Source of the DNA: a virus
Reading direction: 5' to 3' (one strand)
IMG/VR virus record: IMGVR_UViG_3300044256_000031
DNA length: 37,775 bases
Position 1 is the first letter of the stretch; each line of letters starts with the position of its first letter. The notes below the pieces were generated by a model. That model saw only the letters and a list, made by a program, of their open reading frames with translations, did not search any database and was not told where the DNA came from. Shown here piece after piece: positions 5,306-8,800 of the stretch. The position numbers and the translations under genes are program-made.

Positions 5306-5659
5306 TCAGCATTCTTCCTTCCTGTTGATTGAAGCCTCAGTACTAAAAGCACTGCCATAACGTGACTGCAACTTCGCTATGTTTTGCGCTGCTACTGAGT
5401 TGAGGTTGAATCCAAGTGCACTACACAGCTCTGCAACATACCAGAGTACATCACCTATTTCATCGCTTAGTTTATCCAAGTTTGGTGAATCCAGGTGATA
5501 GACCATCTTCTTGATATGATCAGCAACTTCGCCTGCCTCGCCATTGAGACCTAGTGTTGCCATGAGCATGTTCTCACGTCTGTCAGTATTGTTGCGCGTG
5601 TCAATAGGTGCAAATGCACTGGTACGACGTGCCAGCTTTTGATACTCGTTAAGGTCCAT
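5306..5659 (-). CDS. mazG: MazG-like nucleoside triphosphate pyrophosphohydrolase
   Basis: 117 aa from the internal Met (MDLNEYQKLARRT...). Typical MazG helices are present: EAGEVADHIKK and EIGDVLWYVAELC. GC content is visibly low compared with the flanks. Confidence 0.85.
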   Translation of the reverse strand: MDLNEYQKLARRTSAFAPIDTRNNTDRRENMLMATLGLNGEAGEVADHIKKMVYHLDSPNLDKLSDEIGDVLWYVAELCSALGFNLNSVAAQNIAKLQSRYGSAFSTEASINRKEEC

Positions 5660-5760
5660 GCGTAGTTCTCCAGTGCTGAGGTTAGAAATTAACCTCACTA
5701 ACATCCCAAGGTTGAGGTACAGTGCTGGAGAGCACTTCTCAGTGCTCCCCTTGACAGGTT

Positions 5761-5807
5761 CCTCCTTGAACCTCCCCACGGCTAAAGCCGGGGGAGGTTC
5801 AAGGAGG
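5761..5807. repeat. 47-bp near-perfect hairpin with an IS-end-type core (CCTCCCC-N-TAAA-N-GGGGAGG) extended by a 10-bp outer stem
   Basis: CCTCCTTGAACCTCCCC ACGGCTAAAGCCG GGGGAGGTTCAAGGAGG, read directly. Confidence 0.8.
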
Positions 5808-5954
5808 CCATCACGGCGTCGGGCTCGACTTGTCACTCGATTATTTGACCAACATCGCCCGCGAGCGGCTGGGCCTGGCGGCGCTCAGGAGGTGGACTGA
5901 CGGCGCGGCCCCCCGGGTGGAGCACTACGAGGACTTGCCCTTGTTTGCGAGGTA

Positions 5955-6070: not shown

Positions 6071-6541
6071 ATGTCAACACGCATTCTAGCAGCCATCCGG
6101 TCCTGTCCGCAACTCCACGGCAACCTGAAATTCACCGCCCTTGAAATTGCGCATCGTCTCAACGGTGCCGGGTATGGTCGTGTCGCCCACCAGTTTATGG
6201 CCCACAAAACGGGCTATTCCGTGCGTACTGCCTTCCGCCATGCGGGGAAGCTCGTCGCCATGGGCATCTTCGCCAAAACCGTCTATCGTACCGCCCACGG
6301 TTGCGGTATTAATCTCTACCGCTGCCTGCTGCCCATCCCAGCGTTTTATCGCGCAGCGCCAGCAACGACGCATAGTGACAGCGTGTCAGCGACTCTTCCT
6401 CCCCACGAGAAAGAAAAAGATACGAGCGTGCGTCAGGATCTCGATAACCAGCGCAAAGGCATCCGGTTCCTGACCGCTGGCAGCGATCGGTGGACCAGAG
6501 TGCTTGACGTCCTCCCACGACTAAAGTCGCGGGATTCCTAA
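6071..6541 (+). CDS. Winged-helix/HTH DNA-binding protein; the C-terminus runs into the IS right end
   Basis: The N-terminal 90 aa look like a winged-helix fold (FTALEIAHRLN...GYSVRTAFRHAGKLVAMGI). The last codons are read from the IS end hairpin at 6511-6538. RBS AGGAGAG is present. Confidence 0.6.
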   Translation: MSTRILAAIRSCPQLHGNLKFTALEIAHRLNGAGYGRVAHQFMAHKTGYSVRTAFRHAGKLVAMGIFAKTVYRTAHGCGINLYRCLLPIPAFYRAAPATTHSDSVSATLPPHEKEKDTSVRQDLDNQRKGIRFLTAGSDRWTRVLDVLPRLKSRDS

Positions 6542-6700
6542 GAGCGTTGCACGTCCGCAACGGAGTATATTATGCGCAGCATTGCGGTCCCGTTTATGCA
6601 CAGCACCACAACCAGCGCACGTCCATACTCTTACCCCCAGCGCACTCAGTCCACTCGGCCCGGTGCGAGCACCACAAGCCGAGCAAGTCACACTGGAGTA
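6495..6700 (-). ncRNA. Predicted TnpB guide RNA (omega/reRNA) scaffold overlapping the tnpB 3' end and the right end
   Basis: Placed from family knowledge only. Hairpins CGTTGC-ACGTCC-GCAACG (6545-6562) and 6511-6538 are visible. The extent is not determined. Confidence 0.35.
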
Positions 6701-7573
6701 GGATTCATTGACTTCGCCATAGATCACGCCAAGCCGCTTGGCTTTATATTCCAGGCATGTGCGAAGTTGGCCCCATCCGGCATCAAGCACAGATTTGGCC
6801 ATCCGAGTTTTGACCAACTTGGTACTGGAGACATTCCCGACAGCGATCAGCTTAGCGCGGTGCACAATGGCTGTCGTGGTCTTGTGCGTCCAGTCCTTGC
6901 GGCAATTGGCAATCTTGGCGTGGATAGCCTTGACGCGCTTCGTCTTGTTAGCTCTCTGTGCCATAGCCAGCGCGTCTTCATGCGTCCGCGTCAGGTTGTC
7001 TCTGGAGTAGGGCTCATCCATATCAGAGCACCAGAGCTGGTTGGTAAGCCCCAGGTCGATACCGATTTCTGTGTCCCCAACAGGTACGTTGGCGTCTTCA
7101 ACCTCGCACTGGAAGTTGACGTACCATCTGCCTCTCGCATCTTGCGTGAAGCTGCCAGTCTTCACTCTTCCAGTAATCGCACGCGAGAGCCAAAAGCGGA
7201 AACGGCGCTTCAAATATTTGATGGAGTCGTCGTCAATCTTCAGAAAGCGTGCCTTGAACGGTATCCATCCAAGCGACCGCTTCCGGCTACGCCACTTCAA
7301 GCGTCGTTTCCTGGCAGCCACACGCTTCGCAACGTACTCCCGGCATATCTCGCTGATCGTGTCAGAATGCAAACCAAGTTCAGCGCCAGCGCCAGCACAC
7401 AGGTTAATCAGTTCAAATGTAGACAGCCAGTGCTTGTCTCGACGCAGCGCCAGCATGGATACCTCGTTACAGAAGTTCCAGACGGTATTGACGGCCCAGC
7501 CAAGGCGCACAAGGTGCTTACTGCTTGTAGAGTCTTTGATCCTGTATTTGAAGGTCAGCATACTACTTGGCAT
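6521..7573 (-). CDS. tnpB: TnpB (IS605 OrfB-type RNA-guided nuclease family), non-canonical RuvC-II position
   Basis: 350 aa with RuvC-I GIDLG, the conserved block SVLDAGWGQL, zinc ribbon CSACG...CAGCG, and RuvC-III HKRDRNAAHNI. Confidence 0.9.
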   Translation of the reverse strand: MPSSMLTFKYRIKDSTSSKHLVRLGWAVNTVWNFCNEVSMLALRRDKHWLSTFELINLCAGAGAELGLHSDTISEICREYVAKRVAARKRRLKWRSRKRSLGWIPFKARFLKIDDDSIKYLKRRFRFWLSRAITGRVKTGSFTQDARGRWYVNFQCEVEDANVPVGDTEIGIDLGLTNQLWCSDMDEPYSRDNLTRTHEDALAMAQRANKTKRVKAIHAKIANCRKDWTHKTTTAIVHRAKLIAVGNVSSTKLVKTRMAKSVLDAGWGQLRTCLEYKAKRLGVIYGEVNESYSSVTCSACGARTGPSGLSALGVRVWTCAGCGAVHKRDRNAAHNILRCGRATLLGIPRL

Positions 7574-7973
7574 GGTGGCTCTCTTGCGCTTCGATGTACT
7601 TCTTTATCGTATCAGCAGAGACATGCCCAGCCGTGCCAACGTAATAGCTTGGAGCCCACAGCCTATCAGAGCGCGTGCGTTTGCGGAGCTGGGGATACAT
7701 CAAGCGGAGTTGGCGAGCAGAAATACCTTTGAAGAGCTTGACGGATTGCGCGATAGACATCGTAGGCGGCATAGAGACGAAGAGGTGTACGTGATCCGGT
7801 TGGACATCGACAGCCAAAACATCCATGTGGTTCTGGTGGGCAATCGTATGCAACAGATTCTCCAACGTCGTCTTGACTGGCTCTTGAAGCACATCACGAC
7901 GATACACCGGACGCCACACTATATGATATGCTGTCAGGTATACGCAACCTCTTGTATGTATAGGTTCATTCAT
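7563..7973 (-). CDS. tnpA: IS200-type Y1 (HUH) transposase TnpA
   Basis: 136 aa with YHIVWRPVYRR, the HUH motif HVHLFVSMPP, and the catalytic-Tyr region PSYYVGTAG. Confidence 0.9.
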   Translation of the reverse strand: MNEPIHTRGCVYLTAYHIVWRPVYRRDVLQEPVKTTLENLLHTIAHQNHMDVLAVDVQPDHVHLFVSMPPTMSIAQSVKLFKGISARQLRLMYPQLRKRTRSDRLWAPSYYVGTAGHVSADTIKKYIEAQESHHAK

Positions 7974-8101
7974 ATGTTAATGGTAGCACAAAACTGTTGC
8001 GTTTGCAACGCAACGTTGCTTTCCTCCCCGCACTGAAGTACGGGGTCTCCAGCAACGATTTCTTAGGAAGAGATCACCCGATTGGAGGGCCTGCTGATGC
8101 C

Positions 8102-8800
8102 CTAGCGCACCGTCACCTCGACGCGTCGATTCTTCGGCTCTGGCCGCTCTGGCGCATCAATCACCGGCTGACGCTCGCCACGGCCCGTCACGCGCACAAA
8201 CGTCGCGGTCAGCCCCCCCTGCACCAGCAGCGCACGCACCGCTTCTGCCCTGGCCAGCGACAGCGCATCATTCGCCGCGTCCGTCCCTACCTGGTCGCAG
8301 TGCCCTTCGATGACCACCTCCACCGGCCCACGCCGGTGGACCTCTGCCAGCAGGTGCCCCAGGGTGACACGCCCCTCGGCACTGAGGCCGGCCTTGCCCG
8401 TGGCGAACCGGAACGTATACGTGGCTGCCCCCTCTGGCGCCGTCGCAATGACCGCCCCATAGCGCTCCTGAATCGTCGCGGGCGGCAGCGTCCCGAGCAG
8501 GAGCTTCCCGCCCTTCCAGATGTTCGCCGTGCTGTCGGGCGCCGTGAGGGTGGTAGTACCCGTGGCCGTGGTCACGGTCAGTGCTTCCCCGGGCTCAGCG
8601 CCCAGCAGCACGATACGCTCGCGGGGTCCCGCACAGGCGCTGAGGAGCAGCAGCAGGAGGAGCAGCGTGGGGCTCAGAGAAGGAAGATACACGCGAGCGC
8701 GATAACGATGAGCATGCAGATCATCATGATCAGGATGCCAGACCAGTCGTCGAACCACGCCGTCCACCGCGCTAGCTGTCGCGCCATCCACCTGCCCCAC
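8102..8800 (-). CDS. OmpA/MotB-domain lipoprotein (peptidoglycan-binding)
   Basis: Lipobox LLLLSAC. The C-terminus reads VVIEGHCDQVGTDAANDALSLARAEAV...NRRVEVTV. The start is uncertain: GTG 8800, GTG 8791 or GTG about 8691. Confidence 0.8.
   Translation of the reverse strand: MGQVDGATASAVDGVVRRLVWHPDHDDLHAHRYRARVYLPSLSPTLLLLLLLLSACAGPRERIVLLGAEPGEALTVTTATGTTTLTAPDSTANIWKGGKLLLGTLPPATIQERYGAVIATAPEGAATYTFRFATGKAGLSAEGRVTLGHLLAEVHRRGPVEVVIEGHCDQVGTDAANDALSLARAEAVRALLVQGGLTATFVRVTGRGERQPVIDAPERPEPKNRRVEVTVR

Follow-up and report, generated by a model that had tools for sequence, protein, structure and literature searches.

Does a phage-borne TnpB that lacks the canonical glutamate of its RuvC-II motif retain a nuclease active site, or does it bind DNA without cutting it? 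This question is raised by a gene in a viral DNA of 37,775 nucleotides (IMG/VR record IMGVR_UViG_3300044256_000031; the whole stretch is hereafter referred to as the window). An earlier note on this DNA had left both answers standing, and its description of the gene as phage-borne was borne out by the portal, large terminase, head-closure, tail-fiber and ejection proteins encoded in the window. The protein contains TnpB domains (Pfam PF07282, E 5.7e-22; PF01385, E 3.9e-8) and was matched by phmmer to ISDra2 TnpB (8bf8/8h1j/8exa; E 1.5e-23), its best sequence match among natural proteins of solved structure; the AI-designed nuclease 9yyg scores higher. The gene and the residues that bear on the question are as follows.

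6521-7573, minus strand: tnpB, 350 aa, predicted RNA-guided nuclease with a rearranged RuvC-II
7055-7057, minus strand: RuvC-I Asp D173 (GIDLG), aligned with ISDra2 D191
6833-6838, minus strand: canonical RuvC-II position, G246-N247 instead of Glu, aligned with ISDra2 E278-H279
6704-6706, minus strand: predicted alternative RuvC-II Glu E290 (VNESY), E-x6-CxxC, codon GAA
6608-6685, minus strand: C4 zinc finger C297/C300/C319/C322, read in the translation
6587-6589, minus strand: RuvC-III Asp D329 (HKRDRN), aligned with ISDra2 D361

We observed that phmmer aligns ISDra2 E278 with G246 (codon 6836-6838), placing LIAVGNV under IIGTEHL with N247 next, in agreement with the earlier claim that the canonical RuvC-II glutamate is missing. 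The pairing of SVLDAGWGQL with ISDra2 SISDAGWGEF, on which that manual alignment had been anchored, recurs in the phmmer alignment. Because the glycine is conserved across close homologues (120/121) and representatives of 50%-identity clusters (133/135), it is neither a chance feature nor a private mutation of this phage; the adjoining position 247 is Asn or Asp in the family. The RuvC-I aspartate, the RuvC-III aspartate and the CxxC/CxxC pair, which the note had called intact, correspond to conserved residues. D173 is found in 121/121 close homologues, among which the DLG of RuvC-I is invariant, and in 132/134 representatives; D329 is found in 121/121 and 116/124, respectively; and C297xxC300 / C319xxC322, which lie under the ISDra2 zinc finger, are kept in at least 120 of the 121 close homologues.

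Forty-four residues after G246 lies E290, the E of VNESYSS that had been put forward as a candidate for a relocated glutamate and that our analysis supports as the right residue. It is followed by SYSSVT and C297xxC300, placing it six residues ahead of the first CxxC, and is aligned with a proline of ISDra2 (VSPYF). This glutamate is invariant among close homologues (121/121) and kept by 125/131 of the 50%-identity cluster representatives, 99 of those that cover all four columns having the pattern D-G-E-D. The two glutamate positions are mutually exclusive, as the distant canonical TnpBs L019, L021 and L023 have Glu in the G246 column (VEALN, IEDLN and VETLN) and Pro or Arg in the E290 column. 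In published work, Ealt is defined as the Glu that precedes the first CxxC by six residues (PMC10711439), and it is through this E-x6-CxxC definition that we equate E290 with the Fanzor2 glutamate. The alternative Glu of TnpB2 and Fanzor lies ~45 residues downstream of the lost one (PMC10530073), an offset that matches ours and agrees with the note's remark that relocation had been reported for Fanzor and some TnpB clades, and RIIr-5, the largest rearranged clade, combines an E-to-G replacement with a compensating Glu (PMC10691335). The spacing from RuvC-I to the Ealt position is 114 residues, slightly under the 120-160 set in a published pattern for finding Fanzor-like TnpBs, and a short-motif query against solved structures returned unrelated zinc-finger proteins only. 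At the level of sequence, the assignment of E290 as the relocated RuvC-II glutamate is strongly supported.

The AF2 model of the protein (pLDDT 83) has the expected RNase H topology, and its top Foldseek matches are 8h1j, 8iaz, Cas12f and Fanzor2 9b0l. In this model D173 is at the end of strand 168-174, G246 at the end of strand 240-247, and E290 directly after strand 284-289, which precedes the zinc finger, with D329 at the start of helix 328-342. D173, G246 and E290 are located at the ends of neighboring strands, as expected, a placement read from secondary structure, and residues 249-264, adjoining the active site, have a pLDDT below 50.

From these data, we consider it about 85% probable that the RuvC active site of this TnpB is rearranged, not destroyed, with a predicted triad of D173, E290 and D329. 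As a documented substitute glutamate lies 44 residues downstream of the missing one, the protein does not appear to be a dead enzyme. Loss of the canonical Glu with a downstream substitute has been documented for very large clades of TnpBs, described as the RIIr clades of rearranged-RuvC-II TnpBs (Altae-Tran et al. 2023, PMC10691335), as TnpB2 (Jiang et al. 2023, PMC10530073) and as 'Ealt' TnpBs (Yoon et al. 2023, PMC10711439). We found no difference in kind between these proteins and the phage TnpB, which shares with them the Glu-to-Gly change, the Glu ~45 residues downstream and six before the zinc finger, the intact RuvC-I and RuvC-III Asp, the C4 zinc finger, the Y1 TnpA partner and the small size (350 aa). 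It resembles RIIr-5 in its E-to-G character (PMC10691335), a likeness by character and not by tree, and its RuvC-III motif is the (H)xRDxN of 'typical' TnpBs. The phage TnpB is an ordinary member of this known 'rearranged active site' class.

Members and relatives of the class are known to be active. TvTnpB, encoded by an IS605 element of Thermoplasma volcanium and carrying the alternative Glu E323, is an RNA-guided, TAM-dependent dsDNA nuclease with no collateral ssDNA cleavage (PMC10530073). As judged from its published description, it is like the phage TnpB in its tnpA-bearing IS605 element and rearranged RuvC-II, but it is archaeal and has the TAM NTGAC, where TCCT is inferred for the phage protein. 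Cryo-EM of the Fanzor2 ApmFz2 (mimivirus L79; PDB 9B0L) defined the triad D324/E467/D501 (PMC11832414), and ApmFz E467A is inactive (PMC10530073). Fanzor2 has the same fold as the phage TnpB (Foldseek E 1.8e-14; profile E 4.8e-15) and likewise a relocated Glu. However, Fanzors, Fanzor1 as well as Fanzor2, occur in eukaryotes or giant viruses, have DPG at RuvC-I and extended N-termini, and are partnered by IS607 or other transposons, whereas the phage TnpB has DLG, no such extension and a Y1 TnpA in place of an IS607 serine recombinase, and it is therefore not a pro-Fanzor. ISDra2 TnpB (8H1J, 8EXA, 8BF8) is the top fold match and agrees in domain order, zinc finger, RuvC-I and RuvC-III, but unlike the phage TnpB it has the canonical E278, a Pro at the Ealt position and the TAM TTGAT.

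The tnpB gene lies within a complete transposon, whose parts are given below.

6504-8064, minus strand: complete IS200/IS605-family element, 1,561 bp, in the order LE, tnpA, tnpB/omegaRNA, RE
8065-8068, minus strand: candidate target/TAM TCCT, directly 5' of LE
8026-8045, minus strand: LE subterminal hairpin, CCCCGTAC-TTCA-GTGCGGGG
7563-7973, minus strand: tnpA, 136-aa Y1 (HUH) transposase, with an 11-nt overlap with the start of tnpB
6514-6533, minus strand: RE subterminal hairpin, CCCGCGAC-TTTA-GTCGTGGG, with the tnpB stop TAG in the loop
6504-6508, minus strand: RE terminus GTCAA, predicted right cleavage site, directly after which the sequence diverges

Assignment to the IS200/IS605 family follows from a Y1 HUH TnpA next to a TnpB (PF01797; PF07282 and PF01385), subterminal hairpins at both ends with no terminal inverted repeats, and integration on the 3' side of a short, specific sequence with no target duplication. 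The tnpA product matches the full-length Pfam model PF01797 (Y1_Tnp; E 7.5e-39; 1-121/121) and has a readable HVH motif, and tnpA and tnpB are both full length without frameshifts. At the right boundary, similarity among 20 related loci stops after ...GGAGGAYGTCAA, and the terminus GTCAA is found in nearly all of them. The left boundary is defined by YTCCT followed by AARAA at the junction, which is kept in five independent insertions (TTCCT precedes LE here, CTCCT in the other four), as well as by the interrupted phage gene, which rejoins in frame. We rejected an alternative left target of YTCC, with the element starting TAAGAA, because it puts the restored gene out of frame. The LE hairpin is kept with compensatory changes in L041, L042, L045 and L001, and the RE hairpin is conserved in position, also with compensatory changes (18-21 loci). 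GC content is 0.50-0.56 in the element and 0.60-0.70 in its flanks.

IS608 of Helicobacter pylori, the reference IS200/IS605 element, reportedly has subterminal hairpins, a right end TCAA ~10 nt after the hairpin, GAAT before the RE hairpin, and a target site 5' of the element that is a tetranucleotide and is not duplicated. The phage element shares with it the hairpins, the TCAA end at this distance, the GAAT before the RE hairpin and the mode of insertion, but has TCCT as its left target and GAGA before the LE hairpin; its relatives in Aquaspirillum serpens use TTAC...AAAG, like IS608. As described in the literature, the RE of ISDra2 runs well past the tnpB stop codon; that of the phage element ends 17 nt after it; the two elements are alike in having an omegaRNA that overlaps the tnpB 3' end. 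The TnpB of IS608 belongs to the typical, canonical-Glu clade (PMC10691335).

The insertion follows TCCT and interrupts a conserved phage gene, whose last 13 codons it replaced.

6071-6503, plus strand: 5' part of the interrupted phage gene, 144 codons, with 25 homologues
8065-8105, plus strand: its displaced 3' end, …QEEITRLEGLLMP and the stop

As it now stands, the 5' part runs 12 codons into the element and stops at 6541. When 6503 is joined to 8065, the C-terminus aligns without gaps with the homologues P0291 (QEEIARLEGLLTC) and P0292 (CEEITRLEGLLRC), and it was by such protein homologues that the element boundary was settled. The empty-site junction pattern had no match in viral or metagenome contigs, a protein-based locus search of viral contigs revealed neither a vacant site nor a relative of the phage, and GenBank phages yielded no megablast hit to the element region. 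We take the element to be intact and recently inserted.

The RNA partner of TnpB is predicted to come from the right end of the same element.

6504-6700, minus strand: predicted omegaRNA scaffold, all but the last 17 nt inside the tnpB coding sequence
6545-6562, minus strand: covarying hairpin inside the coding sequence, CGTTGCG-GAC-GTGCAACG
6488-6503, minus strand: predicted omegaRNA guide, the first 16 nt of the flank after RE, GCACTCTGGTCCACCG

The predicted scaffold, for which 6700 is a provisional 5' end, folds with an MFE of -96 kcal/mol (z = -5.3 versus shuffles), and its DNA is near-invariant, third codon positions included. A consensus fold of 18 loci has compensatory changes at 19/40 pairs, and six of the seven pairs of the hairpin inside the coding sequence show both-sided, pair-keeping changes in 6-12 of the 18 sequences. 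The guide is placed next to RE on the basis of how IS200/IS605 TnpBs work, and its length of 16 nt is assumed. Compared with the window, this predicted guide matched well only its own flank. An Rfam scan of the window at gathering thresholds returned nothing, and a tRNA scan found none there.

With the locus described, the second reading of the earlier note can be weighed, namely that this is a nuclease-dead, RNA-guided DNA-binding protein (a TldR-like repressor or otherwise exapted TnpB) put to regulatory use by the phage. The absence of the canonical RuvC-II glutamate would fit such a protein, as would the location in a phage, since TldRs have a TnpB-derived fold and some are phage-encoded (10.1101/2023.11.30.569447). 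However, the DED motif of TldRs is deteriorated, and the zinc finger and RuvC C-terminus are often missing from them, whereas here one of three canonical positions is changed, an invariant compensating Glu is present, and the zinc finger, RuvC-III and an untruncated C-terminus are retained. TldR genes are located outside transposon ends and linked to fliC or oppF; the phage gene lies between the two ends of a complete IS with tnpA that disrupts a phage gene, has no fixed partner of the fliC/oppF type, and belongs to a family found in unrelated genomic contexts with multiple copies per genome, as in Aquaspirillum serpens, where a relative that shares the G/Ealt pattern has at least seven copies. 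The predicted guide, too, matches in the window only its own flank, and the authors who described TldRs left out alternative-Glu TnpBs as false 'inactive' calls (10.1101/2023.11.30.569447). We regard this reading as unsupported and very improbable.

It is also very unlikely that the IS is decaying and that selection on its TnpB has ceased, a reading that the single copy in the phage genome might suggest. Both genes are full length and free of frameshifts, every catalytic and zinc-finger residue is in place, both ends and both hairpins are intact, and a cluster of 100%-identical proteins exists elsewhere (P0001, 13 member sequences).

There is a slim chance that the active site is completed by a compensating residue other than E290, either at position 247 (Asp in 65 representatives, Asn in 49) or E287, which is found in 117/121 close homologues. 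Because position 247 is Asn here and in 105/121 close homologues, it is not the essential carboxylate of the family, and E287 is lost in more distant G/Ealt relatives such as L005 (VCKVVNEAC) and L037 (MCVLVNEAY), which keep E290. It is the E290 position that has been validated in Fanzor2 and TvTnpB (PMC10530073, PMC11832414).

Finally, a canonical Glu hidden by a shifted manual alignment is already refuted at the sequence level, because the Glu of canonical TnpBs in the same alignments falls in the G246 column, G246 stays under E278 when the protein is aligned independently by phmmer and by profile to three ISDra2 structure sequences, and strand 240-247 contains no Glu or Asp, the N/D position 247 being Asn here.

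Returning to a rearranged, E290-dependent active site, we propose the following mechanism by analogy with characterized relatives, from which E290 catalysis, RNA guidance, the role of TCCT as TAM and homing are all extrapolated. TnpA would excise and insert the element in single-stranded form via the LE and RE hairpins, inserting 3' of TCCT and cutting after GTCAA. The omegaRNA scaffold would be a transcript of the tnpB 3' end and the next 17 nt in RE, and the flank that follows (GCACTCTGGTCC...) would act as its guide. The TnpB-omegaRNA complex, its second catalytic carboxylate supplied by E290 and not by the G246 position, would cut copies of the phage genome that have TCCT directly before the guide sequence. 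As TCCT followed by the guide sequence is the empty or excised site, the element would thereby be restored by recombination (homing/retention). A more speculative and rather unlikely extension is that in a lytic phage the element acts as a phage-to-phage gene drive, with co-infecting sibling genomes being cut and converted by recombination. This extends the known TnpB homing model and invokes no new mechanism. If it holds, the target of the drive would be the uninterrupted gene, with TCCT then GCACTCTGG..., and the relocated Glu, linked in published work to absent collateral ssDNA cleavage, might make the nuclease tolerable to a phage replicating through single-stranded intermediates.

The element is compact, its whole guide-RNA scaffold lying within a 350-aa ORF, and could be of minor interest as a small editor scaffold, many such proteins being already catalogued. 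The phage TnpB adds a member to the described RIIr/TnpB2/Ealt class, which is itself already known, and the phage probably carries a functional, recently inserted RNA-guided transposon. In a TnpB, a missing canonical RuvC-II glutamate should count as evidence of nuclease death only where the E-x6-CxxC position is vacant as well, and screens for exapted or inactive TnpBs, like first readings of a sequence, need to check both glutamate positions.

The TnpB of this phage sequence lacks the canonical RuvC-II glutamate and, by analogy with characterised relatives, probably uses E290 for catalysis. Its gene lies in a tailed-phage genome fragment that encodes a portal protein, a large terminase and a head-closure protein, together with a tail fibre, an ejection protein, a lytic tail protein, helicases and a primase. 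The transposase gene tnpA is directly upstream of tnpB, with an overlap of 11 nt, and both belong to a complete IS200/IS605 element with left (LE) and right (RE) ends. The features are:

6521-7573, minus: tnpB, 350 aa (Cas12f1-like_TNB, PF07282, E 5.7e-22; OrfB_IS605, PF01385, E 3.9e-8)
7563-7973, minus: tnpA, Y1 transposase, 136 aa (PF01797, E 7.5e-39, full-length match)
6504-8064, minus: complete IS200/IS605 element, 1,561 bp, from comparison with related loci and the interrupted gene
6514-6533, minus: RE hairpin, with the tnpB stop codon in its loop
8026-8045: LE hairpin, similar to that of RE, with compensatory changes in relatives
6071-6503 and 8065-8105, plus: interrupted phage gene (25 homologues; no Pfam match)
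6545-6562, minus: seven-pair hairpin in the coding region (covariation, 18 loci)
6488-6503, minus: predicted guide, flank GCACTCTGGTCCACCG
5306-5836, minus: MazG-like pyrophosphohydrolase near the element (PF03819, E 9.5e-12)
8102-8800, minus: OmpA-domain protein near the element (PF00691, E 9.3e-17)

The TnpB gene of Acinetobacter phage HFM1 likewise adjoins a MazG-like gene.

The earlier note had read a Gly at the RuvC-II position with the other catalytic elements intact, and every one of its residue correspondences was recovered in a phmmer alignment to ISDra2 TnpB (8bf8, 8h1j and 8exa; E 1.5e-23 against PDB sequences). The anchor block SVLDAGWGQL lies beneath SISDAGWGEF, D173 of GIDLG corresponds to D191 (RuvC-I), G246 to E278 (RuvC-II, LIAVGNV beneath IIGTEHL) and D329 of HKRDRN to D361 (RuvC-III), with C297xxC300/C319xxC322 beneath the ISDra2 zinc finger. 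An HMM comparison had been proposed in the same note, and a profile of 67 family members gave the identical registration. The Glu of VNESYSS, named there as a candidate for relocation, is E290, which lies 44 residues downstream of G246 and beneath an ISDra2 Pro (VNESY beneath VSPYF). The alternative RuvC-II glutamate, Ealt, is defined as a Glu six residues before the first CxxC (Yoon et al. 2023, PMC10711439), and E290-SYSSVT-C297 fits this definition exactly.

The family is large, with more than 7,500 proteins at E <= 1e-5 among 8,000 candidates tested (90% clusters), and 12,792 at E <= 1e-3 and 271 at E <= 1e-30 in a 50%-identity representative library. Conservation was counted over non-gap cells in a close set (the query and its 120 closest homologues, 65-100% identical) and in 150 distant representatives (34-63% identical), and is given with the position of each residue in an AlphaFold2 model:

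D173: close set 121/121, representatives 132/134; end of strand 168-174
G246: close set 120/121, representatives 133/135; end of strand 240-247
Position 247: close set N 105 / D 14, representatives D 65 / N 49; end of strand 240-247
E290: close set 121/121, representatives 125/131; right behind strand 284-289
D329: close set 121/121, representatives 116/124; start of helix 328-342

Among representatives spanning all four columns, 99 have D-G-E-D jointly, and the VG[ND] ... [NSD]E pattern is kept down to 42% identity in genome and viral-contig loci. In three distant TnpBs (~31% identity; Planosporangium, VEALN; Massilia, IEDLN; Nocardia, VETLN), the G246 column holds the canonical Glu and the E290 column Pro or Arg, so the two Glu positions exclude one another. 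These three serve as an internal control, and a shifted manual alignment is refuted by the phmmer, profile and family alignments alike. It is unlikely that a residue other than E290 compensates for the lost Glu, since the window TnpB and most of its close relatives have Asn at position 247, and distant G/Ealt relatives retain E290 but have lost E287.

Relatives with the G/Ealt pattern, 40-47% identical, occur in GenBank phages: Ralstonia phage Heva (annotated ISPa83), Acinetobacter phage HFM1, Bacillus phage Dartukuta and Salmonella phage LPSTLL. One GenBank record labels the LPSTLL protein (MN737551.1; L049:1501-2592; 40% identical, VGD ... DEAY) 'putative head morphogenesis protein', and the RefSeq copy calls it 'transposase'. 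Two metagenomic contigs with close homologues of the window TnpB each have another, distinct TnpB gene of 386-387 aa no more than 2 kb away (L041:1029-2189, L045:5250-6413), indicating that IS200/IS605 elements cluster there.

In the secondary structure of the AlphaFold2 model (67 sequences; mean pLDDT 83.3, pTM 0.70), the four key residues take up the RNase H-like arrangement that a rearranged site should have. Foldseek matched it in the PDB to ISDra2 TnpB (E 1.6e-18), Fanzor2 9B0L (E 1.8e-14), ISFba1 TnpB and Cas12f proteins. Internally, pLDDT falls below 50 only at residues 249-264 (6740-6820, minus), directly after the G246/N247 strand, which may form a flexible 'lid' above the RuvC site.

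The RE consensus, GGAAT-(8-bp stem)-loop-(stem)-AGGA-N-GTCAA with minor variants, was present in all 20 related loci whose right end was correctly located, and similarity among them ends directly past GTCAA. The right end is accordingly at 6504, and the tnpB stop codon precedes it by only 17 nt. One piece of DNA (6504-6533, minus) therefore serves as TnpA-binding hairpin, last omegaRNA stem and C-terminal codons (…GIPRL*). Most relatives keep this arrangement, with the stop codon 14-21 nt from the end in 15/20 loci. At the other end, YTCCT-AARAA is conserved before LE in 5 independent insertions. Joining 6503 to 8065 recovers the phage C-terminus ...RVQEEITRLEGLLMP*, which aligns without gaps to the uninterrupted homologues P0291 (...GQEEIARLEGLLTC) and P0292 (...CEEITRLEGLLRC), making the left boundary exact. 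The element sits 3' of TCCT, with no duplication of the target. The final 13 codons of a conserved phage protein are replaced by it and displaced to its far side, and the truncated ORF (6071-6541, plus) enters RE and gains 12 codons from it. The protein P0271 from ENA (95% identical) has this same C-terminus fused to the IS, so the insertion is common to at least one other assembled contig. The restored gene and the OmpA-domain gene, which lies on the opposite strand, overlap at their stop codons.

The final ~197 nt of the element (6504-6700, minus) fold at -96 kcal/mol (z = -5.3 relative to dinucleotide-shuffled sequences), and DNA conservation there reaches third codon positions. Of the 40 pairs in a consensus fold built from 18 loci, 19 show compensatory double changes, and the RE hairpin is among the covarying parts; in the hairpin at 6545-6562, 6-12 sequences changed on both sides at 6/7 pairs. 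The predicted omegaRNA scaffold thus lies nearly all within the tnpB ORF. Rfam gave no matching family at gathering thresholds, and the predicted guide had no second good match within the window.

Evidence of mobility includes the GC content (0.50-0.56 in the element, 0.60-0.70 in the flanks) and a related element that carries only tnpB and occurs seven or more times in Aquaspirillum serpens DSM 68 (L012, L018, L020, L027, L028, L032 and L034). The TnpB of this element is 43% identical and retains the G/Ealt pattern. Here TTAC opens the conserved left-end stretch and the LE hairpin is preceded by AAAG, as with the target and guide tetranucleotides of IS608, whereas the window element has TCCT and GAGA in the corresponding places; this looks like natural retargeting inside one family.

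By analogy with characterised relatives, TnpA would excise the single-stranded element and insert it at TCCT, the putative target-adjacent motif (TAM). TnpB, with the candidate triad D173/E290/D329, would bind an omegaRNA derived from the tnpB 3' end, and the complex would cut TCCT plus guide-matching DNA, either at the site emptied by excision or in the uninterrupted genome of a sibling phage. Recombination would then restore the element, amounting to homing.

A rearranged RuvC-II in TnpB is an already documented state. 'RuvC-II rearranged' clades were defined by Altae-Tran et al. 2023 (PMC10691335), the Fanzor2 cryo-EM triad is D324/E467/D501 (PMC11832414), and ApmFNuc E467A is inactive (Jiang et al., PMC10530073). 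TvTnpB, which belongs to IS605 and is rearranged in RuvC-II, was shown to be a DNA nuclease that requires both a TAM and a guide and has no collateral activity (Jiang et al., PMC10530073). The window protein has the sequence-level features that define TnpBs published as Ealt, TnpB2 or RIIr, and its element has those of IS200/IS605. Pro-Fanzors differ in having DPG and a serine recombinase partner, where the window protein has DLG and a Y1 partner. The earlier note's other reading, a nuclease-dead repressor of the TldR type, is very improbable, as the protein lacks the defining TldR features, only one canonical position is altered and that one is compensated, both the zinc finger and RuvC-III are preserved, and the gene lies within a mobile IS without fixed linkage to a partner gene. 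We conclude that the missing canonical Glu was correctly observed and is a known property, so that this TnpB adds a member to an existing class; its chief value is as a reminder to inspect the E-x6-CxxC position before declaring any TnpB inactive.
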